From assembly GCA_045116695.1 (NCBI GenBank), contig JBGUME010000020.1, forward strand, positions 1-38,036: a stretch of DNA of 38,036 nucleotides, in the 5' to 3' direction. The number at the start of each line of letters is the position of its first letter. Position 1 is the first letter of the stretch. Below the pieces are notes generated by a model that had not been told where the DNA came from, searched no databases, and saw only the letters and a list, made by a program, of their open reading frames with translations. The position numbers and the translations under genes are program-made. Origin of the DNA: Anaerovoracaceae bacterium. Lineage in GTDB: Bacteria; Bacillota; Clostridia; Peptostreptococcales; Anaerovoracaceae. Positions 1,920 through 38,000 of the stretch are shown here, piece by piece.

Positions 1920-1931
1920 GTGAGGTTGATC

Positions 1932-3185
1932 ATGGCGTTTAATTTGTTTAAGTGGATTTTAGGAGAACCAAATAACGAAGCCGAGCAGGTGGGGACAAAA
2001 GTCAACCTGTCAGACTTCATGAATGACGAACAGGGAAGCGCCATAGCCGGCATAGAGCTGACCATACAGAAGATGGCCTTCTGGACAGCGATCCGGAAGA
2101 TCTCCGCTGCAGTGTCAGCTGTCGAATGGGAGACGGTAAGGCGGAACAAAAAGGTCAAGGCCCGGGAGTACTGGTCATGGAATTTCAGCCCGAACCCGAA
2201 CCAGACAAGGGAGGAGTTCTTCACGGATCTGATCGGGACACTGTACTCGAAACAGGAGGCCCTGATAGTAGAGACAAAGAACGGATACAGGTATGTAGCG
2301 ACCGGTTTCTCGAAAACAGAAAGACTTGACGGAGATATCTACACAGACATCACAGCTCACAATGATTCGATCCCCGGATCATTCTCAGCGAAGGATGTCT
2401 TTCATTTTGCAATCGAAGGCGACAGGATCAAGGCCATTCTGCTCATGATTACAGCCAACGAAGGGCAATTCATTAAAAGCGCCACATCAAATTATCTCAA
2501 GGGGCAGGGAACGCGAGGCATCCTGCACATAGATGAGACTGCAGAAGCGGATCCTGACTTCGAGGATACATACGAGGATCTTGTACAGAAAAAGTTTAAG
2601 AGCTATTTCGAGAACGCAAACGCAGTCCTGCCCATGTATAAGGGCTTCGACTTCCAGCAGACGGAGACAAAGGGAGGCAGCACCAAGTCGGAGCTGGCCG
2701 GATCCCGCGATATCCGCAATATGTACGATGACATAGTTGAATTTACAGCTCAGACATTCGGTATTCCGGTATCAATATTAACAGGCAAGGGAGTAACAGC
2801 TGCAGACTTCAACATCTTTATGACTCAGACCGTACAGCCTCTTGTGATGATGATAGCTGACGAGATCAACCGGAAACTCTACGGCCAGCAGCTCGTACTT
2901 GCATCCGGATCCTACATAGTTCCGAATCTTGCGAAGGTTAAGTACATAGATGTATTCGATGTGGCCAACCCGATAGACAAGTTGATCGGCTCCGGAGCGT
3001 TCTGCGTGAATGATGTCAGGATAAGGCTCGGCATGGATGTCATCGACGAAGAATGGGCATGGCAGCATTGGATGACAAAGAACTACTCTCCTACAGAAGA
3101 ACTTCTGGAGGGAGTTGATGATAATGATGCACCGGTGCAACCGGACGAAAATAATGAGGAGGATGAAGATGAAAACGAAGAATAA
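1932..3185 (+). CDS. Portal protein, HK97 family
   Basis: About 417 aa between terL and the protease. GAGG lies 6 nt before ATG 1932 (the ORF track starts at GTG 1920). The C-terminus is acidic. Confidence 0.9.
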   Translation: MAFNLFKWILGEPNNEAEQVGTKVNLSDFMNDEQGSAIAGIELTIQKMAFWTAIRKISAAVSAVEWETVRRNKKVKAREYWSWNFSPNPNQTREEFFTDLIGTLYSKQEALIVETKNGYRYVATGFSKTERLDGDIYTDITAHNDSIPGSFSAKDVFHFAIEGDRIKAILLMITANEGQFIKSATSNYLKGQGTRGILHIDETAEADPDFEDTYEDLVQKKFKSYFENANAVLPMYKGFDFQQTETKGGSTKSELAGSRDIRNMYDDIVEFTAQTFGIPVSILTGKGVTAADFNIFMTQTVQPLVMMIADEINRKLYGQQLVLASGSYIVPNLAKVKYIDVFDVANPIDKLIGSGAFCVNDVRIRLGMDVIDEEWAWQHWMTKNYSPTEELLEGVDDNDAPVQPDENNEEDEDENEE

Positions 3186-8750: not shown

Positions 8751-11645
8751 ATGGCAAGCACTAACAGGATCAAAGGAATCACTATAGAGTTAGATGGCGA
8801 TACCACCAAACTCACCCAAGCCATCAAAAAAAGTGAATCAGAGATAAGAAGTGCCACAAGTGGGCTTAAAGATGTCAATAATCTTCTTAAAATGGATCCT
8901 GGCAACACAGAGCTCCTGACACAAAAATATAATTTATTACAGCAGGAGATCGGGGGAGCCAAGGATAAGCTGCAGACGCTCAAAGATGCACAAGCTCAGA
9001 TGGCATCCGAAGGCAAGGTTGGCACCGATGAGTATAATGCGCTTCAAAGAGAAATTACAGATACAGAGCAGAAAATAAAGAGCTTAACAAAAGAAATTAA
9101 GAACTTCGGATCAGTAGGAGCTCAGCAGGTAGCAGCCGTCGGAGAAAAGATGAAAGATCTCGGCGGGAAGATGGAAACAGCTGGGCAAAAACTACTTCCG
9201 TTGACAGCGGCTCTGACAGCAGCCGGAACTGTAGGCGTGCAAAAGTTCGCCGAGGTTGATAAGACGATGACCTTGACGAATCAGACTATGGGAAATACTG
9301 CCGAAGAGGCAAAGCTTCTCAGTGATTCGATGAAAGAAGCTGCAGCCAACTCGACATTCGGCATGAATGATGCGGCTACAGCATCTCTCAATTTTGCCCG
9401 CGCCGGGCTGAGCGCCGCAGAAGCCGCAGCTGCTCTGGCACCGGCGATGAACTTGGCTGCAGGCGAAGGAGGAAATCTGGATGTTGTATCAGCTGGGTTG
9501 GTTGGTACAATAAATGGATTCGGAGATTCCTTCGATAATACTACTCATTATGCCGATGTGTTTGCGGCTGCATGTAATAACTCAGCTCTTGATGTAGATG
9601 GGTTGTCGAATGCCATGGGTGTCGCAGCTCCGGTCTTTAAATCAGCCGGGTATACGGTAGAAGACGCGGCTTTATATCTTGGAATACTTGCTGATAAAAA
9701 TATAGAAGCAACGGAAGCGGCTAATGGTTTAAAAACAGGTATCACACGACTTGTTGCTCCTGCAAAGCAAGGAAAAGAAATGATGATGGATCTCGGTCTC
9801 ATCACAGAAGATGCGGGCGGAAAGCTGGTAAACGCTTTTACCAATGCTGACGGATCCATGAAATCTACCATCGAGGTACAGCAGATTCTACATGATAAAT
9901 TTGCAGATTTATCAGAATCGGAACAGATAGCGGCAGCGTCTGCGATATTTGGCAAAAACCAAATGTCAAAATGGCTGGCCCTTATAAATACAGCACCAGA
10001 AGAAGTTCAAGCTCTGTCGGATCAGCTGACAGATTGCGCCGGTACAACTCAGGAGATGGCTGACGCCATGATGAGCGGTTTCGGTGGCTCGCTTGAAAAA
10101 TTAAAGTCAAGTATAGATGTGGCCGCCACATCTTTAGGAGAAGCATTAGCACCAACGATATCGAAGATAGCGGAGGCAGTACAGAAAGCTGTTGACTGGT
10201 TTAATTCTCTCGACGAAAGTCAGCAACAGATGATAGCTAAAATAGGACTCGTAGTAGCAGCCCTCGGCCCTGTGCTGATCATAGGTGGGAAAATAGTAGG
10301 CGGTCTTGGCTCAATCCTGACACTGGCTCCTAAAGTAGTAGGAGCGTTTGGCTCAATAGGAGGCGCTATAAGCGGATTTGTTGGAAAAGCCGGATCAGCG
10401 GCATCAACGGCGACATCCGCAACGTCAAGCATAAGTAAAATAGGAAGTTCGGCAGGAACGGCAGCATCAGGAATGTCATCGGCGGGAACCGCGATGGGCA
10501 CGCTTGCACAGAATGCTCTTGGATTCATTGCGCTTGGAGCCGGAATACTTCTTGCTGCTGCAGGTATCGCCTTATTGGCTCAGTCAGCCATAGCGCTTGC
10601 TAAAGCAGGACCCGAAGCAGGTCTTGCCCTGCTTGCCCTTGTTGGAACCATGGCATTGTTTGCGGCCGGTGCCGCAGCCCTCGGTCCAGCACTTACAGCC
10701 GGAGCTGTTGGACTTGTAGCCTTCGGAGCAGCTGTGGCGCTTGTAGGCGTCGGTGTATTGGCAGCATGTGCCGGCTTGACTTTACTCGCAGGGCAGCTCC
10801 CGACAATAGTTCAATACGGAGGTCAGGCAGCGGTAGCGATTGCACAGCTTGGAGCCGCACTTGTGGTTTTTGCTGCAGGGTGCACATCAGCATCAGGCGG
10901 CTTGACTTTGCTTGCAGCAGGATTGCTTCTTGCTGCTGCAGGGCTTGGAACAGCCACAGTGGCCATGCTTGCATTTACTGTTGCAGTATTGGCTCTTAGC
11001 GCGGGAATGGTTGTACTCACTGCTTCAACAACAGCACTTGCCGTGGCAATCGGATTACTCGCAGCGGCAATCTTGGCACTTGGTGTTTCAATAAATACAT
11101 CGACAAAATTGATCATTGAATCATTCCGGTTGATCAAGAAAGAGGCCGAAGATACATTCAATGGGATGTTAAAAATTATTGAAACGGTACTCGGATCAAT
11201 ATACAAGAAAGTAGAAGAAAAATTCGGGAAAGTAAAGGAATTTATAAAAGGCGTCGTCGAATGGCTCAAGAAGGCGTTTGATTTTGAATGGAAACTTCCC
11301 GATATCAAATTGCCGCACTTTAAGATAGATGGCAAGCTTTCACTTGATCCTCCATCTATGCCGAAGATATCCGTAGATTGGTATTCTAAGGCTATGGAGA
11401 ACGGTATGATTTTAAATTCTCCGACTATATTCGGAGCGTCCGGAGGAAAGTTCCTGGGAGCAGGTGAGGCAGGATCCGAGGCGATAGTCGGTACCGGATC
11501 CCTTCAGAATATGATCACCAGTGCGGTAGCCGCCGCAGGAGTCGGCGGAGATATCGTCATTCCTGTATATGTCGGCAACCAGAAACTTGAGACAATGGTT
11601 GTGCAGGCTACACAGATCAACAACTATAGATCGGGAGGCAGATAA
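8751..11645 (+). CDS. Tail tape measure protein
   Basis: 964 aa with an N-terminal coiled coil, a TP901-type core (NSTFGMNDAATASLNFARAGLS) and a long Ala/Gly-rich hydrophobic segment. Confidence 0.9.
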   Translation: MASTNRIKGITIELDGDTTKLTQAIKKSESEIRSATSGLKDVNNLLKMDPGNTELLTQKYNLLQQEIGGAKDKLQTLKDAQAQMASEGKVGTDEYNALQREITDTEQKIKSLTKEIKNFGSVGAQQVAAVGEKMKDLGGKMETAGQKLLPLTAALTAAGTVGVQKFAEVDKTMTLTNQTMGNTAEEAKLLSDSMKEAAANSTFGMNDAATASLNFARAGLSAAEAAAALAPAMNLAAGEGGNLDVVSAGLVGTINGFGDSFDNTTHYADVFAAACNNSALDVDGLSNAMGVAAPVFKSAGYTVEDAALYLGILADKNIEATEAANGLKTGITRLVAPAKQGKEMMMDLGLITEDAGGKLVNAFTNADGSMKSTIEVQQILHDKFADLSESEQIAAASAIFGKNQMSKWLALINTAPEEVQALSDQLTDCAGTTQEMADAMMSGFGGSLEKLKSSIDVAATSLGEALAPTISKIAEAVQKAVDWFNSLDESQQQMIAKIGLVVAALGPVLIIGGKIVGGLGSILTLAPKVVGAFGSIGGAISGFVGKAGSAASTATSATSSISKIGSSAGTAASGMSSAGTAMGTLAQNALGFIALGAGILLAAAGIALLAQSAIALAKAGPEAGLALLALVGTMALFAAGAAALGPALTAGAVGLVAFGAAVALVGVGVLAACAGLTLLAGQLPTIVQYGGQAAVAIAQLGAALVVFAAGCTSASGGLTLLAAGLLLAAAGLGTATVAMLAFTVAVLALSAGMVVLTASTTALAVAIGLLAAAILALGVSINTSTKLIIESFRLIKKEAEDTFNGMLKIIETVLGSIYKKVEEKFGKVKEFIKGVVEWLKKAFDFEWKLPDIKLPHFKIDGKLSLDPPSMPKISVDWYSKAMENGMILNSPTIFGASGGKFLGAGEAGSEAIVGTGSLQNMITSAVAAAGVGGDIVIPVYVGNQKLETMVVQATQINNYRSGGR

Positions 11646-16859: not shown

Positions 16860-17708
16860 ATGAGTAAGATCACAGATTATTCAGCCATCGAAGCGCTCAA
16901 TTCCGGAAGCGTGCTGTTGGTTGACGGAACGGGCGGGACCAAGAAGATCCTGGCAACAAATCTGATGAAGGCCCTGGCTGAAGTATCGGATGATGTAAAT
17001 TTGCACCGGAACACATACGGCGGAAGAAGCCTCGGTACCAGCGTATCAGCTGACCAGTGGGCTCAGATATCCGCTGGTACCTTCCACGGGATGCTGGTAG
17101 GTGACTACTGGACCATCGGAGGCGTGAACTGGCTGATAGCTGACTTTGACTACTGGCTTCATACCGGAGATACCGAGTGCACAGCGCATCATGTCGTAGT
17201 TATCCCGGAGACCTGCCTGTATAATGCGAAGATGAATGATTCAAATATCGTTACCGGAGCGTATGTCGGATCGGTTATGTATACGACCAACCTGGCCACG
17301 GCCAAGACGACGATCAACAATGCGTTCGGATCAGCGCATATATTGAGCCATAGAGAATACTTGGCAAATGCGGTAACAGACAACAGAGAGACAGCTCATG
17401 CATGGAAGGATTCAACTGTAGATATCATGAATGAATCAATGGTATATGGCGGGGAGAAATTCCATAACCAGATGCAGGGAACATCATGGGCTGAATATCA
17501 TACTATTGACAAGACACAGCTGGCACTTTTCAGGCTGGATCCTACCAAGATAGTAGCGTTTTATAATAATGCTCGTGCGTACTGGTGGCTGCGTGATGTC
17601 GTGGGCTCGACGAGCTTCGCGTCTGTGTACAGCTACGGCATTGCGAACGACGCCAGCGCGTCGTACTCGATTGGTGTCCGCCCGGCTTTCGGTATCATCG
17701 GATCTTAA
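16860..17708 (+). CDS. DGR target protein 1 (putative receptor-binding protein with a C-terminal variable region)
   Basis: The last 45 codons contain VR1. The C-terminus ...AYWWLRDVV...GVRPAF is typical of DGR CLec-type variable proteins. It is the last gene of the tail module. Confidence 0.85.
   Translation: MSKITDYSAIEALNSGSVLLVDGTGGTKKILATNLMKALAEVSDDVNLHRNTYGGRSLGTSVSADQWAQISAGTFHGMLVGDYWTIGGVNWLIADFDYWLHTGDTECTAHHVVVIPETCLYNAKMNDSNIVTGAYVGSVMYTTNLATAKTTINNAFGSAHILSHREYLANAVTDNRETAHAWKDSTVDIMNESMVYGGEKFHNQMQGTSWAEYHTIDKTQLALFRLDPTKIVAFYNNARAYWWLRDVVGSTSFASVYSYGIANDASASYSIGVRPAFGIIGS
17574..17690 (+). repeat. DGR variable repeat VR1
   Basis: Gap-free 117-nt alignment to the TR. All 16 mismatches are at TR adenines. 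Confidence 0.9.
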
Positions 17709-17712
17709 ATCA

Positions 17713-17729
17713 CCGCCCCTTGTGGGCGG
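17713..17729 (+). promoter_or_regulatory. GC hairpin downstream of VR1 (candidate DGR target-recognition stem-loop)
   Basis: CCGCCC-CTTGT-GGGCGG starts 22 nt after the VR1 end and 4 nt after the stop codon. The same stem follows VR2 and is absent after the TR. Confidence 0.6.
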
Positions 17730-17744
17730 GGATGGAGGGAAACA

Positions 17745-18362
17745 ATGTCAAGCGTCCCAAAAGGCCGCCGGAAGGAATCGCCCTTCCAGGCGCGGCATAA
17801 CTACTATAATCTTCGGGATGAGATCACAAGGCTCATGATCAACGACTTCGGATTTGATCAGGAGAAATACAATGCCAGGATAGAAAAATACCGGCAGGCT
17901 CACTCGAAGGCAGATAATACGGATAAGATCGTGGAACGGTGGAAGCGTAAGTCAGACGCCTTCAATAAGTGGTTCATAGATAAGGAATGCGACGCGGTAC
18001 TTGATATCCTGCGCAAGATCGAGTCGGAGTTCACATACGGAAACTCGATATTCCCGTCAGAGACTCCGGCCAAGATGTGCGAATATCTTGAAAGAAGGAA
18101 ACACATCACGGCAGCGATATCTTACTGCTATGTATTAAAGCAGGAGCTCCTGTATATTATCAGGACTTTGCCTGTAGATCTGAACAGATACTATCACTAC
18201 GAGAAGGCGATAGATGCACAGATATCTTTATATAAGGGCGTGAGGCAGTCCGATAACCGATTCCTGAAGAATAAGAAAAAGTCGATTGATATAAGCGATG
18301 AGATCACCGGTATATCCGAGATCATTATCGCTTTATTCAATAAAATACGGGGCAATCTTTGA
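17745..18362 (+). CDS. avd: Avd-like DGR accessory protein (unusually long, 205 aa)
   Basis: Basic, helical ORF in the canonical slot between the target gene and the TR. Its stop lies 1 nt before the TR. GGAGGGA RBS. Confidence 0.55.
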   Translation: MSSVPKGRRKESPFQARHNYYNLRDEITRLMINDFGFDQEKYNARIEKYRQAHSKADNTDKIVERWKRKSDAFNKWFIDKECDAVLDILRKIESEFTYGNSIFPSETPAKMCEYLERRKHITAAISYCYVLKQELLYIIRTLPVDLNRYYHYEKAIDAQISLYKGVRQSDNRFLKNKKKSIDISDEITGISEIIIALFNKIRGNL

Positions 18363-18363
18363 A

Positions 18364-18480
18364 CGTGCGAACTGGTGGCTGCGTGATGTCGTGAACTCGA
18401 CGAACTTCGCGAATGTGAACAGCAACGGCAATGCGAACAACAACAACGCGTCGAACTCGAATGGTGTCCGCCCGGATTTC
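18364..18480 (+). repeat. DGR template repeat (TR)
   Basis: 117 nt with 30 adenines and 13 AAY codons in the VR frame. It is the invariant partner of VR1 and VR2. Confidence 0.9.
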
Positions 18481-18658
18481 GATTGTATCGAATGTAAGAC
18501 CTTAAGATAGGCAATGATATGAAACCGAAAGGAAAGACTGTCCCTGCCGGATGGCTTAATGATAGCGCGCAAGCGGAGCTGTCCTATGCCAGTTTGATCC
18601 ATGGTTTGTGATTACGATTGCAGCCTATCCGGATCTTAACCCGCGAGGGAGCATAGGA
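18364..18658 (+). ncRNA. Predicted DGR RNA (TR plus a 178-nt spacer upstream of the RT)
   Basis: Non-coding stretch between the avd stop and the likely RT start. The call is by analogy to the BPP-1 TR-Sp RNA. Boundaries are not determinable from sequence. Confidence 0.4.
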
Positions 18659-19822
18659 ATGATTTTAACAAGTGATATGAATGTTCTGTATGATGCATTC
18701 AGAGCTTCAATGAACAGTAGCTCCTGGAAGACTGAGCCTCAGAGGTTTGAATCAGACTTCCTTATGGAGATAACACAGCTGTCAGATGAGTTGAATGACA
18801 GAACATATGTGACCAAGGAAAGAAATGTCTTCGTCACTCATGAAAGAGGTAAGGCGAGGCTGATCCATGGCGGCCGGATGCGAGATCGTGTGGTCAGGCA
18901 CGCTTTATGTGATACTGTCATGAATCCGATTATAGACAGATACATAATCCATAATAATTGCGCGAGTCAAGAAGGTAAGGGTGTAGACTTTGCCAGGAAG
19001 AACTTCGAGAAGGATCTTCATAATTACTGGCTTGAGCACCGGACAAACGACGGCTGGATCTGCTTCATAGACTTCTCAAAGTTTTATGACAACATCCGGC
19101 ACGACAGAGTCAAAGAGTCCGTCTGCAGGATCCTTGATGAACACTCCGCCTGGTTATTCTCGAGTATCATTGATACCTTCAAGGTGGATGTCTCCTATAT
19201 GTCAGATGAGGAGTATGAAGGATGTATAGACCGGAAGTATAACTCGATCGAATACTATGAGACCATCCCGGAGGAGCTTCGGACCGGGAAGAAGTTCATG
19301 GCCAAGTCCGTGGATATCGGAGACCAGATATCGCAGAGCATCGGAGTATTCTTTCCTACTCCGATAGATAACTACATCACTATAGTCAGAGGATTCAAGC
19401 GGGCCGGAAGATACATGGATGATATCTATATGATCCATCACGACCGGGATTATCTCATCGAGACTCTTGAGGGAGTATGCGAACAGGCCGAGCGCCTGGG
19501 CCTGTATATCAATAAGAAGAAGACTCATATCTGCAGGTTATCAGATAAGTATAAATATCTTCAGTTCAGATATACGCTCACCGAGACCGGCAAGGTCATA
19601 AAGAGGATCAATCCCAAGGCAACGACCAGGGAGAGAAGAAAACTGAAAGCATACAAGAACCTGCTTGATAAGGGTGAGATTGAGTATGAAGATATAAAGC
19701 AGGCATACATGAGCTGGATGGGAAACTATGCGCGTGTTATGTCCAAGAAACAAGTTAAGAACATGAAGGAACTATATAAACAACTATTTAAGGAGGATCT
19801 ACGATGGAAGGCAAAAAACTGA
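18659..19822 (+). CDS. DGR reverse transcriptase
   Basis: Motif A FIDFSKFYD, the DGR-specific IGDQISQ (IGxxxSQ) and YMDD are present. AGGGAG lies before ATG 18659 (the ORF track begins at GTG 18608). Confidence 0.9.
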   Translation: MILTSDMNVLYDAFRASMNSSSWKTEPQRFESDFLMEITQLSDELNDRTYVTKERNVFVTHERGKARLIHGGRMRDRVVRHALCDTVMNPIIDRYIIHNNCASQEGKGVDFARKNFEKDLHNYWLEHRTNDGWICFIDFSKFYDNIRHDRVKESVCRILDEHSAWLFSSIIDTFKVDVSYMSDEEYEGCIDRKYNSIEYYETIPEELRTGKKFMAKSVDIGDQISQSIGVFFPTPIDNYITIVRGFKRAGRYMDDIYMIHHDRDYLIETLEGVCEQAERLGLYINKKKTHICRLSDKYKYLQFRYTLTETGKVIKRINPKATTRERRKLKAYKNLLDKGEIEYEDIKQAYMSWMGNYARVMSKKQVKNMKELYKQLFKEDLRWKAKN

Positions 19823-20279: not shown

Positions 20280-20409
20280 GAAACTTGTAATTGAGCAGGA
20301 AGAACAGATCGAGAGACAGAGTAGAGTCATCCGGGATCTGCTCATGCAAGTTATCCAGCTTAAGCAGCTGGTGAGCGAGATGATGGATGCGGAGGATGAT
20401 GCAAAGTGA
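20269..20409 (+). CDS. Small coiled-coil protein (46 aa)
   Basis: Internal ATG of track ORF 20161-20409. It overlaps the XkdX stop and the next gene's start. Confidence 0.3.
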   Translation: MSLEKLVIEQEEQIERQSRVIRDLLMQVIQLKQLVSEMMDAEDDAK

Positions 20410-20942
20410 AAAGAATAATAAGACTGTTTGTGATGGTGGCATGCGTCTTGATGATGCATGTCACTGTTTATGCTGAGATAAACTACGATCTTCTGTACAA
20501 CTGGGCATATCAGCCGGCCAACGTGCAGATGAATCTCGTGCTTCAAAATACAAATATACAGGTTGTAGATAGACTTCCGTGGGAATCTCCGGATCTCTAT
20601 GAAACTTATGCATATACGACTATGAATGTGGTTCCTGGAACGCGGTATGTATCCAGTATTGATATGTATATCAAGAAAGGATGCGAGTATGCCCTGACTC
20701 ATGAAGTTGGCCACTGCATAAGCAACTACAATCATTCTGTATATTGGTGGTGTGAACAGCCTATATATGATCAGATCTGGCAGATCGAGAGGCGAAACTG
20801 CATCCTGTTATATCAAGGTTGGGATAATAAGCTTGAGTATTTTGCATGTGCTTATGATGCATATATAAGATATCCTGAGATGCTTAAGCAATCATGTCCC
20901 ATGACATACAACTACATCCAGGTAGTTTTAAACTATACATAA
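20406..20942 (+). CDS. Secreted zinc metallopeptidase-like protein (HExxH; ATLF/M34, Pro-Pro-endopeptidase-like)
   Basis: Signal peptide MKRIIRLFVMVACVLMMHVTVYA, then THEVGHC (HExxH), then a downstream EYFACAYDAY that resembles the ATLF-domain EYFAE motif. Confidence 0.55.
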   Translation: MKRIIRLFVMVACVLMMHVTVYAEINYDLLYNWAYQPANVQMNLVLQNTNIQVVDRLPWESPDLYETYAYTTMNVVPGTRYVSSIDMYIKKGCEYALTHEVGHCISNYNHSVYWWCEQPIYDQIWQIERRNCILLYQGWDNKLEYFACAYDAYIRYPEMLKQSCPMTYNYIQVVLNYT

Positions 20943-22207: not shown

Positions 22208-23521
22208 ATGACACAGCAGGAACGGGAGCAGTGGATAGAAAAGCTTGCAGGATATGTGAAGCAGTACGCTCCACAGTTCAATATAAAAGTAATAAGTCCT
22301 ATTGTGGCCCAGGGGATACTTGAGAGCTCCTGCGGCACCAGCCCAAAGGGACAAAAGAATAACTTCTTCGGTCTCAAATACCGGCCGGGCCGCGTAACCT
22401 GCCACAGTGGATTATTTTGGGATGGTGGATCCGAACAGAATCCGGACGGTACATACAAGCCCATCACAGACCAGTGGTACGTCTTCCCGGATATGGAGAT
22501 GGGAGTCCTGGGATACTTTCAGTGGACGAATATCGCTGCATATTCTTCTCTCAAGAACCTCTCGGACCCGTATCAGTATCTGGTTAATATCAAGGCCTGC
22601 AATTATGCGACATCTCATGACTATGTTAAGAATGTATGGCAGAAGGTTATTGATTATGATCTGACGCGCTTCGATCATGTCGCTGCAAATGTGGTCTCGG
22701 ATGTTAAGGTGGCTATAGATGCCGGACACGGATCCGAGACAGCAGGCAAGAGAACTCCGGACGGGTACCGGGAGCATTGGATCAATGTATCGTGCGCATC
22801 CTTCGTCGATGCAGCACTCAAAAGATGCGGTATAAATACTCTCAGGGTAGCCTGGGATGATACGAATGCCAAGGACGATGAAGATCTGCCGCTGGCCAAC
22901 AGGCAGAAACTTATAAAGCTCAACAAGTGTCAGGTATCCGTAAGTATGCACGCGAACGCATACGGATCCGGATGGAATGATGCCCAGGGAGCAGAGACTT
23001 TGATAAGCAATAAAGCTCCGGGGGATTCTCTTGCGCTGGCCAAGAAGGTACAGTCATATCTTATCAAGGGAACTCCGCAGAAAAACAGGGGAGTGAAGAC
23101 TCAGGCCCTGGCCATGTGTAACTGTTCCACTATGGGAACCAAGGCATCTATACTCGTAGAGATCGGCTTCATGACCAACAAGGCCGAGGCGGATCTCATG
23201 AAGACGGATGCATTCTGCAGAGAGCAGGCGGAAGAAGTCGCTCATGGTATCTGCGATTATCTGGGAGTCTCATATGTGGAGTCTACAGATTCAGTGATAC
23301 ATACTATCGTCAACGAGATTAAGGAAGCTCCTAAGTCGAGCTATCTTGTAAGAATAGATACGGATGTCTTAAATGTCCGGGCAGGAGCCGGGACACAGTA
23401 TCCAAAGACAACAAAGGTTAAGCGCGGCCAGGTTTATACCATAGTCGATGAGCTTAACGGATGGGGCAAGCTTAAATCCGGCGCAGGATGGATCAAGCTG
23501 TCCTACACAAAAGAGATATAA
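22208..23521 (+). CDS. Endolysin: glucosaminidase + N-acetylmuramoyl-L-alanine amidase (Amidase_3) + SH3 wall-binding domain
   Basis: AQGILESSCGTS...NNFFGLKY (glucosaminidase). VAIDAGHGSETAGKRTP...VSMHANAY...LVEIGFMTN (Amidase_3). C-terminal VRAGAGTQYPK...GWGKLKSGAGWI (SH3). Confidence 0.9.
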   Translation: MTQQEREQWIEKLAGYVKQYAPQFNIKVISPIVAQGILESSCGTSPKGQKNNFFGLKYRPGRVTCHSGLFWDGGSEQNPDGTYKPITDQWYVFPDMEMGVLGYFQWTNIAAYSSLKNLSDPYQYLVNIKACNYATSHDYVKNVWQKVIDYDLTRFDHVAANVVSDVKVAIDAGHGSETAGKRTPDGYREHWINVSCASFVDAALKRCGINTLRVAWDDTNAKDDEDLPLANRQKLIKLNKCQVSVSMHANAYGSGWNDAQGAETLISNKAPGDSLALAKKVQSYLIKGTPQKNRGVKTQALAMCNCSTMGTKASILVEIGFMTNKAEADLMKTDAFCREQAEEVAHGICDYLGVSYVESTDSVIHTIVNEIKEAPKSSYLVRIDTDVLNVRAGAGTQYPKTTKVKRGQVYTIVDELNGWGKLKSGAGWIKLSYTKEI

Positions 23522-23779: not shown

Positions 23780-23812
23780 AGAGCTCAGTGTTTACTGAGC
23801 TCTTTTTCTTTT
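23780..23812 (+). terminator. Rho-independent terminator after the tRNA-like core
   Basis: AGAGCTCAGT-GTTT-ACTGAGCTCT forms a perfect 10-bp stem, followed by TTTTCTTTT. The integrase stop codon lies in the loop on the opposite strand. Confidence 0.65.
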
Positions 23813-24868
23813 GTGTCCAGTTTTGTGTCCAGTAGTTTGCAGATTAGAGAAATAATCATTGATCTTATTGTTAGCTTTCTGGGCTTCCTGATCCAACGCG
23901 TGCCGGTATATATTTTTGAGAGTAGAATCGGATTCCCATCCGCCTCGCTGCATTATATACGCGTCAGGAATGCCGATAGCGTGTTGAATCGATGCTGAGT
24001 AGTGTCTGAGATCGTGAAAGCGAAAATAAGGCACTCCTGCGCGCCTCAGAAGCCTATGAAAACGCTCGGTAACAGAGTTCGGATTCAGACTTATGATCTG
24101 ACCTTTTATTCCCTTGAGCTCTTTCATCACAAAATCAGGCATGGAGATGAACCTGTCTCCGGCCTCGGTCTTCGGTATCATCTTAAGTTCCCACTCATTA
24201 TCCTTCCGGAGCACAATAGCCTTGTGCACATGGATCACATTCCCGGATATATCAGAATCAGTCAAGGCACATATCTCTGAGCGTCTCATAGGACCATATG
24301 CAGCCAGCAGGATAGCAATGAGCATGTCTCTGTCCTTCTCCTTCCGAATCTGGTTGATGACCTTCACGACCTCATCATCGGACGGAATATACAGATCCGG
24401 CTTCGACTTAGCCGGGAGAGCCGTTGTGAGACGCATAGAGGGCCGTTCTTTTTTAAAGACAGAAGATATAAGGCCGTGCATGTTCCTGACGGATTTTGAG
24501 CTTAATCCGGACGCACAGGCATTATTTACGAAGTTCTGTATATCATCCTGGGTAATGTCATCGATCTTGCGGGGTCTGAGTGAGTCGAAGTTGTTCTCGG
24601 CCAGCTGCTTATATCCCCGGATAGTGGAAGCACTGAGTACAGATTCCCTTCCAGCGATGTAACCATCAAGAGCCTCGCCGAATGTGAGGATCTTATTGGA
24701 AGCAGCTTCCCGCTTCTCCAGCATATATTTTGTTGCGAGATATTCAGCTTCCTTCTTTGTGGCTGCCGTAAACGACTTCCGGATATCCTTGCCGTTCTTA
24801 TCCTTGCCGACATATACCCGGACACGATATTGACCTGAAGGGAGCTTCCTTGCGGTTGCCATATTCAT
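23792..24868 (-). CDS. int: Tyrosine recombinase / phage integrase
   Basis: N-terminal arm-binding-like RKLPSGQYRVRVYVGKDKNGK, then HDLRHYSAS, GGW...LKNIYRH (catalytic Tyr region). It is adjacent to attP. Confidence 0.9.
   Translation of the reverse strand: MNMATARKLPSGQYRVRVYVGKDKNGKDIRKSFTAATKKEAEYLATKYMLEKREAASNKILTFGEALDGYIAGRESVLSASTIRGYKQLAENNFDSLRPRKIDDITQDDIQNFVNNACASGLSSKSVRNMHGLISSVFKKERPSMRLTTALPAKSKPDLYIPSDDEVVKVINQIRKEKDRDMLIAILLAAYGPMRRSEICALTDSDISGNVIHVHKAIVLRKDNEWELKMIPKTEAGDRFISMPDFVMKELKGIKGQIISLNPNSVTERFHRLLRRAGVPYFRFHDLRHYSASIQHAIGIPDAYIMQRGGWESDSTLKNIYRHALDQEAQKANNKINDYFSNLQTTGHKTGHKRKRAQ
23809..23832 (+). repeat. Tandem 12-bp direct repeat TTTTGTGTCCAG x2 (candidate arm-type sites, P' arm)
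   Basis: Same GTGTCCAGT core and orientation as 23591-23616. It lies within the integrase 3' end and encodes TGHKTGHK. Confidence 0.45.
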
Positions 24869-25737
24869 CCTCCCATTAAAGTGAAAAATGATTGTTTATT
24901 TTGCACCGGTACAACCTGCTCTTTTTGAAGAGCTTCGGTTGGAGGATCAAGCCTGTAAACAAAATCCGGTTGCTTTTCCTCAATAAGATTAAATAACAAT
25001 AGGCCTGTAGCAAATGCATCAGATAAAGCGCTATGTTTCTGCACCATAGGTATTCTGTAATAGTCACATAGGGAAGACAAAGAATAATCAATAACCTCAT
25101 CCTTCTTTATAAGCCTATGTGCCTGTTCGAGAGTATCTATATATTTTCTCTTAACGTCCAGTACTTTACTTCCGGAATAAAAAATAAATTTAAGATCAAA
25201 TTCAAGGTTGTGTGCTACCAGCATAGATTTACCAATGAATTTATCAAAAGAAGGGAGTATTTGACCGATCAGAGGAGCAGAAGCTACCATATCATCCGTA
25301 ATATGATTTATCTTTGAAGCCTCTACAGGAATAGATCGCTCCGGATTAACAAAAGAATGATATTTTTCTATAGGTTCCCCATCATGATATTTAATAGCTG
25401 CCAGTTCAATGATTCTATCCTTACTTGGTGCGAGGCCGGTAGTCTCAGTATCAAACACCACAATATCTGAATAGGATCCTTTTGGAGTGATATTTGCAAA
25501 ATCAAAAGACTCATACCTTTTCTGACGAGCATATGGATCCTCGGAAAGTGATATTTCATATTCCGGAAGATAGCGTATCCATGCCGCCATTTTTGCCTTC
25601 TTTTCATTATCAATCTGTTCCTGGCGCTTTTTGCGCTCCTCTACATCCCTGATATGTTTTGAACAGCTGGCACAGTATCCGACTTCATCGAGATGCCCAA
25701 ATATAATTCTACGCCCACATAATAAACATTTACCCAT
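24865..25737 (-). CDS. DEDDh (DnaQ-like) 3'-5' exonuclease with an N-terminal zinc ribbon
   Basis: CLLCGRR...YCASC. ExoI VVFDTETTGL, ExoII AHNLEFDLKF, ExoIII HSALSDAFAT. ATGA overlap with int. Confidence 0.8.
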   Translation of the reverse strand: MGKCLLCGRRIIFGHLDEVGYCASCSKHIRDVEERKKRQEQIDNEKKAKMAAWIRYLPEYEISLSEDPYARQKRYESFDFANITPKGSYSDIVVFDTETTGLAPSKDRIIELAAIKYHDGEPIEKYHSFVNPERSIPVEASKINHITDDMVASAPLIGQILPSFDKFIGKSMLVAHNLEFDLKFIFYSGSKVLDVKRKYIDTLEQAHRLIKKDEVIDYSLSSLCDYYRIPMVQKHSALSDAFATGLLLFNLIEEKQPDFVYRLDPPTEALQKEQVVPVQNKQSFFTLMGG

Positions 25738-31357: not shown

Positions 31358-32926
31358 ATGGATCCGGAGAACATCAAATACCTTAAGCCGGTACCGAATA
31401 TATACGAGTACGGCCTCAAACAGATTACAGTAGCCCATATCTTTTACAAACGACGCGGAAACTATGCACACTGCCTCTGTAGTGAATGCGGAGCAGAATA
31501 TGAGATACGAACCACATCAACCGGAGATCCATTCCTGGACGATGCTGCCCGGATCGAGATGCCAAAGAGGGACGAAGAGACGAAGTGCCGGTCCTGTAAG
31601 ATTAAGGCAACCTATAAACCGGCCGGAAGCTTCGCGGCCGAATGGTACGAAGCCCATATTGTGACCGGAAAGAAGATAAGCGATACAGAATTTGTCTTCC
31701 GGGCCTTCTGGCTCAACAAAAAGATCATTAAGAACTGCAGGATGGCGTTCAGATGCGTAGAGATCCGGAGGATCTATCTGCAGAAGGGCAAGAAACCGAT
31801 CAGATTCTCACCAAGTTATTATGATGACAGCAAATGGTGCCAGGGAGGATCTGGAGACACATACAGATACAAGGTGCATCCTTCCACATTCAAGGAAATA
31901 GCCAAGACCGGGATGTTCAAGTATGTTCCGAGATGCGAAAAGATCGAGGACACATATTATGACGATTCATGGGTGATGGATTATTATATCGCGGCTGCGA
32001 GATATCCGGACATGGAGATGATCCTCAAACTGGGAATGGAAGAGCTGGCCGACGGACTTGTAAAGAAGTGGCCACTTAACTTCAATCCGAGGGGGAAAGA
32101 AATCCACAACCGTCTAAGGATAAATAAAGAGCACTTAAAGCTATTCATAGAGCAGAAGGGGAACCTTAAGACCTTAAGTCTCTTGCAGCTTGAGAAAAAA
32201 ACCGGACAGCATTGGAGCGACGAAGAGTTCCAGATCGTCAAAGATATCGTCGAGGGCAGCTATGACGGAATGGCAAAGCTTAAGACAGCCATTGAATATC
32301 CTTCACTCATAAAGCTCAGAAACTACTTCCGAAAGAAGGGCATCTACTACAAAGAAGAGAAGAACTACAGTGAAGCGTATAAGGCAAGGAATGAATACTT
32401 CGATTATCTGAATTTAAGGATAAAACTTGGATATGACATGACAAATGACATAATCATTTTCCCTAAGGACATCCACAGGAGACACAACGAAATGGTTCTC
32501 GAGAATGAGAAGGAAAAGTTTGCAATAAGGGAGAGAGAAGTCCGCAAAAAATATCCAAATATCGAGAAAAACTACAAGAAGTATTCGGATATATATGCAG
32601 CCGCGGCAGCAGGCTATATAATTCGCCCGGCCAAGGATGCAGCCGAGATCGTAGCTGAAGGAAGATATCTTCATCATTGCGTAGGTCTTGATACATATCT
32701 GTCAAAGCACAACAAGGGACAGAGCATTATCCTCTTTCTGAGAAAAGCTTCAGAGAAGGACATTCCCTTCATTACGATCGAGATCAAGGGAGACAAGATC
32801 ATTCAGTGGTACGGAGCATATGACAAGAAACCGGAGCCGGAGTACTTCCAAGCCTGGCTTGATACATACACCGAGGAGCTCCGGAAGCATAATCAGAAGC
32901 CCGAAAAGAAGAAAAAAACAGCATAG
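31358..32926 (+). CDS. PcfJ-like protein with N-terminal zinc ribbons (tentative)
   Basis: CLCSECG...CRSCK. The C-terminus GRYLHHCVGLDTYLSKHNKGQSIILFLR...PFITIEI...IIQWYGAYDK resembles the PcfJ-like domain. Confidence 0.5.
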   Translation: MDPENIKYLKPVPNIYEYGLKQITVAHIFYKRRGNYAHCLCSECGAEYEIRTTSTGDPFLDDAARIEMPKRDEETKCRSCKIKATYKPAGSFAAEWYEAHIVTGKKISDTEFVFRAFWLNKKIIKNCRMAFRCVEIRRIYLQKGKKPIRFSPSYYDDSKWCQGGSGDTYRYKVHPSTFKEIAKTGMFKYVPRCEKIEDTYYDDSWVMDYYIAAARYPDMEMILKLGMEELADGLVKKWPLNFNPRGKEIHNRLRINKEHLKLFIEQKGNLKTLSLLQLEKKTGQHWSDEEFQIVKDIVEGSYDGMAKLKTAIEYPSLIKLRNYFRKKGIYYKEEKNYSEAYKARNEYFDYLNLRIKLGYDMTNDIIIFPKDIHRRHNEMVLENEKEKFAIREREVRKKYPNIEKNYKKYSDIYAAAAAGYIIRPAKDAAEIVAEGRYLHHCVGLDTYLSKHNKGQSIILFLRKASEKDIPFITIEIKGDKIIQWYGAYDKKPEPEYFQAWLDTYTEELRKHNQKPEKKKKTA

Positions 32927-35019: not shown

Positions 35020-35508
35020 ATGTTACATCACTTAAAAATCAAGGAGGAGTTCGCTGATGCGATAGTAAGAGGCGAGAAGACCTTCGAGATCAGGATAAAC
35101 GACAGAGGATTCCAGAAGGGGGATCTGATAGAGTTCATAACAGTCCAGGAGGATCTTCCCTTCCCGGATTGCCATCCTATCCACAACCGGACATACGAGA
35201 TCACTTATGTCATGAATGGATGGGGACTTAAAAACGGATATGTGGTCTTCGGGATCCGGGAGACAAAACAGACAGAATGGATGCCGTGCTCGGAAATGTT
35301 ACCGGCCCGCTCCGGAGAGTATATGGTCACATGGACGGCCGACTGGGATAACAAATGCGGCCGGACGAAGCCCATGTTGGAGATGCTGGAATTTGAATAT
35401 GATCCGATGGATCCTGAATGGGACACTACAGTCATAACAGACAGAGGATACCAAAATATTAAGGTCACAGCCTGGAAGGATCTTCCGGAACCTTATGAGG
35501 AGGACTGA
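35020..35508 (+). CDS. ASCH/DUF3850-like N-terminal domain fused to a DUF551-like C-terminal domain
   Basis: HHLKIKEEFADAIVRGEKTFEIRINDRGFQKGDLIEF (DUF3850-like). WMPCSEMLPARSGEYMVTW (DUF551-like). Confidence 0.5.
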   Translation: MLHHLKIKEEFADAIVRGEKTFEIRINDRGFQKGDLIEFITVQEDLPFPDCHPIHNRTYEITYVMNGWGLKNGYVVFGIRETKQTEWMPCSEMLPARSGEYMVTWTADWDNKCGRTKPMLEMLEFEYDPMDPEWDTTVITDRGYQNIKVTAWKDLPEPYEED

Positions 35509-35509
35509 G

Positions 35510-35878
35510 ATGTCAAGGAAAACAATTCCGAAGAAGATCCGGCAGCAGGTATATGAGAAGTATGATGGCCATTGCGCATATTGTGGAATCAAACTTGAAA
35601 TGAAAGACATGCAGGTTGACCATATAGATCCGGTATATCGAGCATATTACGATCATCGGGAAGTCGATGAGAGCATCGATAATTATAATCCGGCATGTCG
35701 GGCCTGTAACTTCTACAAGGGCGTATGGCCGCTCGAAAAATTCCGGAACAATATACAGCATATGTTGATCGGGAAGCTCCGGAAAGATTTCAACTACAAA
35801 ATGCTGGTTAAGTACGGAATGATTCGAGAAGACTTCAAACCGGTGAGATTCTATTTTGAGGAGATGGATAAATGCTGA
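35510..35878 (+). CDS. HNH endonuclease
   Basis: GHCAYCG...VDHIDPV...NYNPACRACNFYKG. GAGGAGG RBS. Confidence 0.8.
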   Translation: MSRKTIPKKIRQQVYEKYDGHCAYCGIKLEMKDMQVDHIDPVYRAYYDHREVDESIDNYNPACRACNFYKGVWPLEKFRNNIQHMLIGKLRKDFNYKMLVKYGMIREDFKPVRFYFEEMDKC

Positions 35879-36144: not shown

Positions 36145-36816
36145 ATGGATAAAAAAGCAATAGACAGAGATTTTGAAGACTTACTAAGAAGATCAAAAGA
36201 GACTGACAAGAAGATAAGAGAGATTAGAGAGGAGTATGAGGCATCCGGGCAGCAGGCCAAGAAGGAGGAAGAGATGAAAGTATACAGAAGAGTGAAGATG
36301 AAGACCAACCATATCGAGGTAGGCGACCAGATCAAAATCAAGCTTAAGGGACGCGGAACCTTCACAGCGACAGCCCAGAAGGTAGATATCACAGGAGGAG
36401 AGTGCTGCATCCTGTTCTTATTCGACAACTGCATTGACAGGCATTGTATGAATGAGACTGATACGAATGAGGGAGGATACGAGGAGTCAGACATGAATAA
36501 GTATCTGAACACGGAGATCCTGGATGCATTCCCGAAGAAGATCCGGAACCTGATGGAGCCGTTTGATGTCAAGCACACATATCTCCGCTTACTAAGCGAG
36601 AGTGAGGTATTCAGCGATGATGCACTGCCGCTCATGCAGGATGTCAAGAACAGAGTATGTTCTGATACGGAAGGATACCGTGCGAGCTGGTGGCTGCGTG
36701 ATGTCGTGTACTCGACGTCCTTCGCGATTGTGAGCAGCAACGGCCTTGCGAGCTACAACGGCGCGTCGAACTCGTATGGTGTCCGCCCGGCTTTCATGCT
36801 GACCTTTGATCTATAA
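36145..36816 (+). CDS. DGR target protein 2 (remote; small, no signal peptide, C-terminal variable region)
   Basis: The C-terminus contains VR2. The domain is related to target 1 (MNETD..GGYEESDM vs MNDSN..GAYVGSVM; ASWWLRDVV...GVRPAF). The N-terminal 45 aa form a charged helix. Confidence 0.85.
   Translation: MDKKAIDRDFEDLLRRSKETDKKIREIREEYEASGQQAKKEEEMKVYRRVKMKTNHIEVGDQIKIKLKGRGTFTATAQKVDITGGECCILFLFDNCIDRHCMNETDTNEGGYEESDMNKYLNTEILDAFPKKIRNLMEPFDVKHTYLRLLSESEVFSDDALPLMQDVKNRVCSDTEGYRASWWLRDVVYSTSFAIVSSNGLASYNGASNSYGVRPAFMLTFDL
36679..36795 (+). repeat. DGR variable repeat VR2
   Basis: Gap-free 117-nt alignment to the TR. All 14 mismatches are at TR adenines, and the substitution set differs from VR1. 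Confidence 0.9.
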
Positions 36817-36818
36817 TC

Positions 36819-36837
36819 TCCGCCCTTAATGGGCGGA
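36819..36837 (+). promoter_or_regulatory. GC hairpin downstream of VR2
   Basis: TCCGCCC-TTAAT-GGGCGGA forms a 7-bp stem. It starts 23 nt after the VR2 end and 2 nt after the stop codon. Confidence 0.6.
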
Positions 36838-37445: not shown

Positions 37446-37542
37446 CAGTATGAAAAAATGAAACACATGAAACACACATATGTGATATTATGGTATTGGG
37501 TAAAAACTGTTTGAGAATTTCCATGTTGTTCTCCAAGCATGA

Positions 37543-37586
37543 AATGCGTTCCGGATCTGCGCGACAATTCGGAGCGCATTTTATTT
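37543..37586 (+). terminator. Candidate intrinsic terminator upstream of the packaging genes
   Basis: AATGCGTTCCG / CGGAGCGCATT forms an 11-bp stem with one G-U pair and a 16-nt loop, followed by TTATTT. Confidence 0.35.
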
Positions 37587-37643
37587 CCCGGAAAAATATT
37601 TCGGCAGATATTTTCCTGGGCTTTATTTTTTGGAAATAGTTTT

Positions 37644-38000
37644 ATGACGAAAAAAGAAAAAGAATATGTCGAGTATTGTCTGGCCACAGATCCTGTATTG
37701 TTTTACCACTGGAATAAGTGGGAGAAAAAACGGCGAGAGATATTGGCACTGGATAAGTTCGAGTGTCAGAACTGCAAGAATAAATACCACAGATACAGGA
37801 AGGCCAACACAGTCCACCATGTCAACCACTTGAAGGACAGGCCGGAGCTGGCACTGAGCACATGGTACACAGAGCCGGCGACACACAAGCGCAAGCGACA
37901 GCTGATCAGCCTGTGTCACGACTGCCATGAAGAGGTACACGGCTACAGGTGCAAGGAAGGTGTGGCCAAGCCAGAGCTCACTGATGAACGGTGGGACTGA
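37644..38000 (+). CDS. HNH endonuclease (terminase-associated)
   Basis: CQNCKN...VHHVNHL...LCHDCHEEVH. It lies directly upstream of terS/terL, as in HK97-like cos phages. ATG 37644 is the preferred start. Confidence 0.8.
   Translation: MTKKEKEYVEYCLATDPVLFYHWNKWEKKRREILALDKFECQNCKNKYHRYRKANTVHHVNHLKDRPELALSTWYTEPATHKRKRQLISLCHDCHEEVHGYRCKEGVAKPELTDERWD

Follow-up and report, generated by a model that had tools for sequence, protein, structure and literature searches.

A template repeat shared by two target genes

The stretch of DNA analyzed here (the window, i.e., the whole 38,036 nt of contig JBGUME010000020.1 under study) was found to harbor a diversity-generating retroelement (DGR). On the forward strand it comprises target gene 1 (16860-17708, +), whose 3' end carries a variable repeat (VR1, 17574-17690, +, codons 239-277 of 282), an accessory gene (17745-18362, +), a template repeat (TR, 18364-18480, +) starting 2 nt past the accessory stop codon, a spacer of 178 nt (18481-18658, +) and a reverse transcriptase (RT) gene (18659-19822, +). 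Target gene 2 (36145-36816, +) carries another variable repeat (VR2, 36679-36795, +, codons 179-217 of 223), located 18,315 nt downstream of the TR. An initial annotation of this DNA, made from the sequence alone, had confined the element to 16860-19822, and this remote target falls outside those limits. Our preferred reading is that of an active two-target phage DGR in which both VR1 and VR2 are diversified at the template adenines, with a probability of about 0.93. The carrier of the element is a temperate siphovirus-type gut phage of ~38 kb, probably from Lachnospiraceae.

The TR contains 13 AAY codons and 30 adenines, which in the VR frame all occupy the first or second codon position. It aligns with VR1 over 117 nt without gaps and with 16 mismatches, every one of which is at a TR adenine (hypergeometric P = 7.2e-12 for 16/16 mismatches on 30 adenines of 117 positions, calculated for VR1 alone). 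Recounting gave the same mismatch positions as those of the initial annotation, and its numbers of adenines and AAY codons, the translations of both repeats and its figure of 15^13 peptide variants (1.9e15) were reproduced as well. The direct repeat (17574-17703 / 18364-18493) was also recovered by an independent repeat search. Furthermore, a search of the whole window with the conserved parts of the repeat revealed VR2 as a third copy, which has 14 mismatches to the TR, again exclusively at adenines (14/14). The TR is non-coding and situated between the accessory stop codon and the RT gene, and both VRs lie within protein-coding 3' ends. A single TR is, therefore, serving two variable repeats. 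When the four VRs available for this phage were pooled, 27 of the 30 TR adenines were found to be changed at least once; the adenines at 18386 (GAT), 18400 (ACG) and 18455 (second A of an AAC codon) were unaltered in all four, a small number of sequences.

Activity was judged from public assemblies, which served as a proxy for population data. The NCBI metagenome-assembled contig L088, representing the same phage in another sample, exhibits no differences from the window over ~3.7 kb reaching from the fibre-like gene that precedes target 1 to the RT gene (target 1 outside VR1, hairpin region, accessory gene, TR and spacer included), as opposed to 18 differences in VR1, all 18 at TR-adenine columns. 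In the region of target 2, the sister contig L089 (5,165 nt aligned) differs from the window at 13 positions, all of them in VR2, with none in the 5,048 flanking nt; of these changes, 12 coincide with TR adenines, and the remaining one affects a TR cytosine situated between mutated adenines. At the protein level, eight variants of target 1 from different samples, among them P0241-P0245, change within residues 239-277 only at AAY-coded positions and at one AGC codon, and five of the eight are identical over residues 1-240. Among four strains of a related phage (L004-L007) sharing an identical RT protein, the divergence of VR1 was 17.5 per 100 nt vs. 1.2-1.8 in the flanking genes. In addition, strain-specific non-adenine polymorphisms of the TR recur in VR1 and VR2 of the same strain (T37 and GCG59-61 in L007, T109 in L005-L007, and five positions in L001 and L002). 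Since such non-adenine variants reappear in both VRs of the strain that carries them, information flows from the TR to both VRs. All reading frames of the element are intact. These comparisons of sequences indicate that both VRs are undergoing diversification in nature.

The possibility that the DGR is a decayed relic, its three repeats being paralogous copies that diverged in the past and no longer diversify, appears highly improbable to us. It is true that the VRs of some relatives (VR1 of L003 and VR2 of L006) present non-adenine mismatches and are possibly decaying copies, and that the evidence for activity comes from assembled contigs. A relic is nevertheless difficult to reconcile with the intact frames, and it is contradicted by the 13-18 substitutions within a 117-nt VR, nearly all at TR-adenine columns, between genomes that are identical over thousands of flanking bases. 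The copying of TR polymorphisms to both VRs of the same strain and the invariance of the TR where the VRs vary argue in the same direction. As to the two deviating repeats, those of L003 (VR1, 1001-1117) and L006 (VR2, about 18031-18148) differ from the TR on the same contig at 5-8 non-adenine positions, some of which match the TR of another lineage. These could be decaying VRs, products of recombinational TR replacement or chimeric metagenome assemblies. An active two-target DGR is the reading we favor, and the earlier proposal of a complete DGR acting on the last gene of the tail module is supported by the RT type, the adenine-only mismatches and the VR-confined variation among contigs of the same phage.

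Reverse transcriptase, boundary signals and spacer RNA

The RT (387 aa) matches RVT_1 (E 4.5e-13) and the PHROG reverse-transcriptase family phrog_1423 (3.7e-55). It is 24% identical to Brt of phage BPP-1 (E 3e-11), and the IGDQISQ and YMDD motifs, already recognized in the initial annotation as the IGxxxSQ type of DGRs, are in register with IGSLTSQ/YMDD of Brt. The best match among PDB sequences was 8ub7_A, a 328-aa reverse transcriptase with the same motifs, which we take to be the BPP-1 bRT on account of its length and motifs. Relatives of the RT in metagenomes amount to 3,864. The start codon had initially been placed at GTG 18608. As judged from the sequence, ATG 18659 is most likely the correct start, because the ribosome-binding site GAGGGAG is located 8 nt upstream of it, homologues are 385-387 aa long, and the spacer RNA extends to 18658.

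Toward the 3' end of the repeats, the GC-rich box GGTGTCCGCCCGG is identical in the TR, VR1 and VR2; in VR1 it spans, together with the fixed C that follows it, positions 17673-17686 (+). After the box, all TRs continue with A and all VRs with C, in all relatives examined including Acutalibacter phage Fontainebleau (ON453893.1). From this pattern the box is a probable 3' boundary of cDNA transfer, resembling the initiation of mutagenic homing (IMH) site, and the A/C difference is analogous to that between IMH and IMH* in BPP-1. The initial annotation had listed A18476>C among the mutated adenines. The difference itself is present, but it is best read as a fixed TR/VR boundary difference and not as mutagenesis, because it is identical in VR1, VR2 and all VRs of the relatives examined; 15 informative mismatches remain in VR1. 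The transferred part of the TR is probably 18364-18475.

A GC-rich hairpin was found just past the stop codon of both targets. The one after VR1 (17709-17733, +; core CCGCCC-CTTGT-GGGCGG at 17713-17729) has a DNA folding energy of -10.5 kcal/mol (z -2.7), and the one after VR2 (36819-36837, +; TCCGCCC-TTAAT-GGGCGGA) folds at -10.2 kcal/mol (z -3.45), with none of 200 shuffles being equally stable. The two share the stem sequence. Neither is followed by a T-run or called by the terminator scan, and no comparable hairpin follows the TR of the window. In a census covering the window and 87 related loci, such a hairpin was present after 88 of 89 VRs vs. 2 of 89 TRs, and the stems covary between lineages with conservation of the 5-nt loop. 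In BPP-1, retrohoming requires a hairpin of which the structure but not the sequence of the stem matters and the 4-nt GRNA loop is sequence-specific (PMC3240598). By analogy, the post-VR hairpin is a candidate target-recognition hairpin or cruciform.

The spacer between TR and RT is a conserved structured RNA. RNAalifold analysis of nine diverged sequences predicted 32 pairs, 16 of them compensatory, with 94% of the cells paired vs. 32-38% when the partners were slid, and none of 500 shuffles reached the observed covariation. In 27 loci, 18 of which had been kept out of the training set, a covariance model of the 3' domain (R1) gave exactly one match each, directly adjoining the RT start, and it gave no match elsewhere in 1.26 Mb. 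The case for structure rests on covariation, since the fold of the single spacer sequence was not more stable than its shuffles (z -0.45). Covariation is strong in the 3' domain (18579-18658). In the 5' half, the helices proposed by RNAalifold (helices 1-2) are weak and partly misaligned, and per-sequence folds suggest a different 5' module, consisting of a stem that starts at most 3 nt from the TR end and short GNRA-capped hairpins, which resemble the Avd-binding stem-loops proposed for many DGRs. An Rfam scan of the whole window at gathering thresholds, spacer included, matched no family. The conservation of structure speaks for a functional RNA, as far as comparative sequence data can tell. 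The RT ribosome-binding site (GAGGGAG, 18644-18650) is located inside a helix of the conserved 3' domain, and because of this position the folding of the DGR RNA and the translation of RT could be coupled.

The accessory protein and the two targets

The accessory gene encodes a basic protein (205 aa, pI 9.33) of an unannotated family, predicted to be all-helical. Its AlphaFold (AF2) model (pLDDT 85) exhibits four long helices and a C-terminal helix. The family comprises at least 315 close relatives and, by exhaustive profile search, 716 clusters. In all 15 bacterial genome loci that were found via the accessory protein alone, the gene has a VR on one side and a TR-RT pair on the other, the mismatches of the repeats being adenine-specific. 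Because of this arrangement, the protein is, judging by gene context, a genuine DGR accessory in the avd slot with a strict linkage to DGRs.

Its relationship to Avd, whose protomer is a four-helix bundle of about 120-130 aa and forms a pentameric barrel binding RT and DGR RNA, is less evident. The protein matched nothing in Pfam (E ≤ 10, including bAvd and 23S_rRNA_IVP), NCBIfam, PHROGs or PDB sequences (single-sequence and profile searches), and ten shorter, Avd-sized members of the family gave no Avd match in Pfam. The Avd profile families tested were PF22296 and PF05635, and the Pfam bAvd model (PF22296) detected BPP-1 Avd at 7e-36, serving as a control. Comparison of the accessory family profile with BPP-1 Avd/bAvd by hhalign yielded a probability of 0.5%. 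In Foldseek searches of the model against PDB and BFVD nothing was significant (no E < 0.3); in BFVD, the entry that superposed best at the local level was an 'Avd-like protein' (probability 0.84, rmsd 2.5 Å over 101 columns, TM 0.61 on the target), with a non-significant E of 2.1. The protein is not recognisably Avd, and 'avd' is a positional label. The name given in the initial annotation holds by position only; basic charge and DGR linkage are shared with Avd, but no Avd profile family was matched.

It is conceivable, though we would place it somewhat short of even odds, that the DGR is genuine and that its helper belongs to a non-Avd accessory family, so that the clade possesses a ribonucleoprotein unlike that of BPP-1, in which an independent analogue evolved with a clade-specific spacer RNA. 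This would be consistent with the failure of the bAvd model, the profile comparison and the sequence and structure searches to connect the protein with Avd, including the profile search of PDB sequences, which missed the Avd entries. It would also fit the length of the protein, ~60% above that of Avd, the large and strictly DGR-linked family, and the report by Wu et al. of DGR lineages without avd (PMC5758913). On the other hand, the protein shares the avd position and a predicted helical bundle, its pI (9.3) is near the 9.5 ± 0.7 of Avd (PMC5758913), and the best superposition, despite its E-value, is with an Avd-like protein. Moreover, avd genes have been described as very poorly conserved (PMC5758913), and the GNRA-capped stem-loops of the spacer are of the type proposed to bind Avd.

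Regarding the targets, target 1 (282 aa) carries a Pfam DUF6273 domain (residues 217-279, E 1.3e-6). It is the last tail-module gene before the DGR cassette, with the tape measure and tail protein genes upstream, a position that the initial annotation had read correctly. Its AF2 model (pLDDT 90) matched in Foldseek the DUF6273 N-terminal domain of Thomasclavelia ramosa IgA peptidase (E 9.6e-6), followed by the Legionella Lcl C-terminal domain and then by many classical C-type lectin domains with weak E-values. With regard to the C-type-lectin-like fold that had been anticipated for the C-terminus of the target, the model of target 1 resembles such domains, the match to the DUF6273 structure being significant and the other C-type lectin matches weak (E 0.1-4). 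The profile of target 1 gave only chance-level chitinase matches among PDB sequences. A search for an N-terminal virion-anchor motif common to target 1 and the upstream fibre-like gene yielded a best BLASTP segment that pairs the two N-termini at E 0.53 and was not used as evidence.

The gene for target 2 (223 aa) is surrounded by early genes, its neighbors being an HNH gene and a phrog_36 regulator, and the protein matches DUF6273 over residues 98-219 (E 3.5e-16) and phrog_21980 (8.9e-37). The sequence likeness between the two targets is confined to the 39 VR-coded residues. Pfam detected neither Mtd_N nor mtd_2nd in either of them, the Mtd control matching PF18454 and PF21916, and Mtd was not present among the Foldseek matches of the target 1 model; the two targets are not Mtd homologues. 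In other DGR targets, DUF6273 domains have been reported to resemble C-type lectins (PMC10743442), and sequence and model together suggest that both targets are C-type-lectin-like via DUF6273, with the VR at the C-terminal end of the domain. Both L004-L007 (at about 17.5-18.2 kb) and phage Fontainebleau (L100, 2489-3058) likewise possess a small DUF6273 target at a remote site. Its early-region neighbors differ, being Cro-like/Bro-ANT genes in L004-L007, DNA polymerase I and helicase genes in Fontainebleau, and HNH and late regulator genes in the window. It seems that this target moves as a unit with its own VR, GC box and hairpin.

Concerning function, receptor binding by target 1 is a reasonable inference from its tail-module position and predicted C-type-lectin-like fold. 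The BPP-1-like receptor-binding diversification proposed initially may hold for this target, but it leaves the early-region target 2 unexplained. Target 2 might instead be a non-virion, intracellular or early-expressed binder, e.g., directed against variable host or competing-phage factors, in which case a genuine DGR would serve two purposes. We regard this as rather unlikely. Its location among early/replication genes in three lineages, with different neighbors each time, would be in line with such a role, as would a highly charged N-terminus devoid of signal-peptide-like or tail-anchor-like segments, the resemblance to target 1 across the VR alone and a diversification as active as that of target 1; in addition, the small targets of phages Lelie, CP11 and Shimadzu are labelled 'function unknown' in the literature. 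However, structural and decoration genes of phages can be located outside the structural module, target 2 has a weak PHROG match (1.2e-4) to a Hoc-like decoration family, limited to the VR segment, and its gene lies near the start of the late region in the window.

Proposed mechanism, phage setting and known systems

Under the preferred reading of an active two-target DGR, an RNA made up of the terminal part of the accessory gene, TR (18364-18480) and spacer (18481-18658) would be bound by the RT and the basic helical accessory protein. The RT would copy the TR into cDNA, misreading adenines, and the cDNA would replace the homologous segment of VR1 (gene 16860-17708) or VR2 (gene 36145-36816). 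Transfer would proceed one way, to the VRs and not to the TR, owing to the GC box with its fixed A/C next base and to the GC hairpin that follows the VRs only. As a result, DUF6273 would present a C-type-lectin-like binding surface on which the 13 AAY-coded residues and up to 3 further ones vary. Several elements of this scheme are drawn from BPP-1 and may apply here by analogy, namely an RNA intermediate with its priming, the part played by the accessory protein, the action of the hairpin and the idea that the targets bind a ligand or receptor.

Several observations weigh against this reading. The evidence for activity comes from assembled consensus contigs of different samples, one of the VR2 changes in L089 is at a TR cytosine, and VR1 of L003 and VR2 of L006 hold several non-adenine mismatches. 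The hairpin loop has 5 nt (CTTGT or TTAAT), unlike the 4-nt GRNA required in BPP-1. Besides the DUF6273 structure, the C-type lectin matches are limited to the weak E-values given above, and the virion location and receptor binding of both targets are putative. Finally, with an accessory protein that is not demonstrably an Avd, the ribonucleoprotein model of BPP-1 may not carry over in its details.

By gene content, the whole window reads like a complete temperate phage genome. The genes for TerL (177-1919), portal (1920-3185) and tape measure (8751-11645) are followed by further tail genes, of which target 1 is the last. The DGR cassette comes next, and then a small gene of XkdX type, the gene of an ATLF-like metalloprotease (20406-20942, +), the endolysin gene (22208-23521) and a tyrosine integrase gene (23792-24868, -), beyond which lie early and replication genes, with target 2, the phrog_36 regulator and an HNH gene in the right-hand part. 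Judging by their taxon names, the relatives suggest Lachnospiraceae and related Clostridia from the gut and the rumen. No terminal repeat was detected when the window ends were compared; L089 extends 57 nt beyond the right end. A tRNA scan of the window was negative, promoter and terminator scans performed no better than shuffles, and megablast of the cassette against 50,697 deposited phages returned zero matches.

Some other genes of the window may be mentioned. The protein encoded at 20406-20942 (178 aa) matches ATLF (anthrax lethal factor-like) metalloproteases (E 5.7e-8), contains an HExxH motif and starts with a hydrophobic, signal-like segment. Its gene is located between the DGR/XkdX region and the lysis genes, is kept in L004-L007 and L088, and resembles a secreted 'moron'. 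In the lysogeny module, an RNase_T/DnaQ-like exonuclease gene (24865-25737, -; E 2.5e-34) lies directly upstream of the integrase gene in the same orientation. The region of the early/late junction contains genes for a DUF3850/ASCH-DUF551 protein, two HNH endonucleases and a PcfJ-like protein (35020-35508, 35495-35878, 37539-38000 and 31358-32926). Two mechanically derived ORFs, 18298-18510 (+), in which the TR is read in the VR frame, and 18333-18602 (-), overlap the TR and spacer and are almost certainly not genes. Equivalents of such TR-overlapping ORFs are annotated by automatic callers in relatives (11474-11713 in L088 and WAK78963.1 in Fontainebleau), and in P0415 the accessory ORF continues by read-through into its own TR.

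The element shares with BPP-1 (mtd - avd/bbp7 - TR - brt; AY029185) the order of target with VR, accessory gene, TR, spacer and RT gene, adenine-specific TR-to-VR changes, and a VR at the 3' end of a tail-module gene whose variable domain is of the C-type-lectin type (a predicted fold in the window). Both also have a GC-rich VR end, a GC hairpin downstream of the VR and not of the TR, a structured spacer RNA between TR and RT, and an RT with IGxxxSQ and YMDD. It differs in that the RT is 59 aa longer at 24% identity, the 205-aa accessory protein is unmatched by the bAvd model, the target contains DUF6273 and neither Mtd_N nor mtd_2nd, the hairpin loop is of 5 nt (CTTGT/TTAAT) instead of the 4-nt GRNA, and a second target exists at a distance of 18 kb.

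Among the 50,697 deposited phage genomes, phage Fontainebleau was the sole member of this DGR clade, with an RT 43.5%, an accessory homologue 33% and a target-2 homologue 35% identical to those of the window. The order of tail genes, target, accessory gene, TR and RT is the same, as is the presence of a small remote target among replication genes. The mismatches of both VRs are adenine-biased, the boundary reads ...CCGCCCGG(A/C)TTTC, and hairpins follow both VRs. Fontainebleau differs in host family and genome backbone and has no nucleotide-level match; its remote target is located between DNA polymerase I and helicase genes, and the spacer model R1 found no match in it. In the deposited record only the RT is named, the accessory protein and both targets being 'hypothetical protein'.

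Faecalibacterium phages Lelie and CP11 (PMC11792537) are likewise temperate phages of gut Firmicutes in which one TR corresponds to two VRs, at the C-termini of DUF6273 in a larger and a smaller protein. A VR at the C-terminal end of DUF6273 has been reported for Lelie, CP11, Roos and Pioen, the same arrangement as in the targets of the window. The RTs of Lelie and CP11 are, however, only ~25% identical, the accessory family was not found in their genomes by tblastn, and the genomes are larger (~53 kb). Gut phage DGRs with two targets are also known from nd4 and nd12 ('tentaclin' cassettes, PMC10743442) and from Roseburia phage Shimadzu, whose targets are a tail protein and an unknown protein. 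For nd4 and nd12, modelling gave DUF6273 a C-type-lectin-like fold in which a beta-hairpin at the surface carries the VR (PMC10743442). The RTs of nd4, nd12 and Shimadzu are 26-30% identical to that of the window. In the tentaclins the VR is near the 5' end, Ig-like domains are present, and both nd4/nd12 targets lie inside the cassette, whereas the window has its VRs at the C-termini and one of its targets far from the cassette. Non-adjacent targets are common within the same prophage (PMC5758913).

In phages of gut Firmicutes, DGRs with two DUF6273 targets have been described before, and every defining feature of a DGR that can be examined in sequence is present in the window. What novelty remains lies in the kind of accessory protein and in what the early-region target does. 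The clade may combine a helper unrelated to Avd (basic and helical, ~160-210 aa, 716 clusters) and its own spacer RNA with a non-virion, diversified lectin-like protein of the early region, a combination that we consider unlikely. If true, the DGR would possess a distinct ribonucleoprotein core and would diversify, besides a tail fibre, a binder that acts inside the cell or early.

Of the natural systems for targeted hypermutation of proteins, DGRs are the best understood; they are abundant in gut phages, and one more phage DGR alone is not news. The present locus is a very clean natural example. Nearly isogenic genomes recovered from different samples are told apart by their two 117-nt VRs only, a single TR supplies both a target in the tail module and a distant one in the early region, and the GC box, the fixed A/C base, the hairpin and the spacer RNA can be read straight from comparative data. 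Whether the accessory protein is a divergent Avd or an independent replacement bears on the generality of the BPP-1 RT-Avd-RNA architecture and on the engineering of compact DGRs for Gram-positive hosts. We also believe that the role of a small, actively diversified lectin-like early-region protein in a temperate phage is a question worth experiments.

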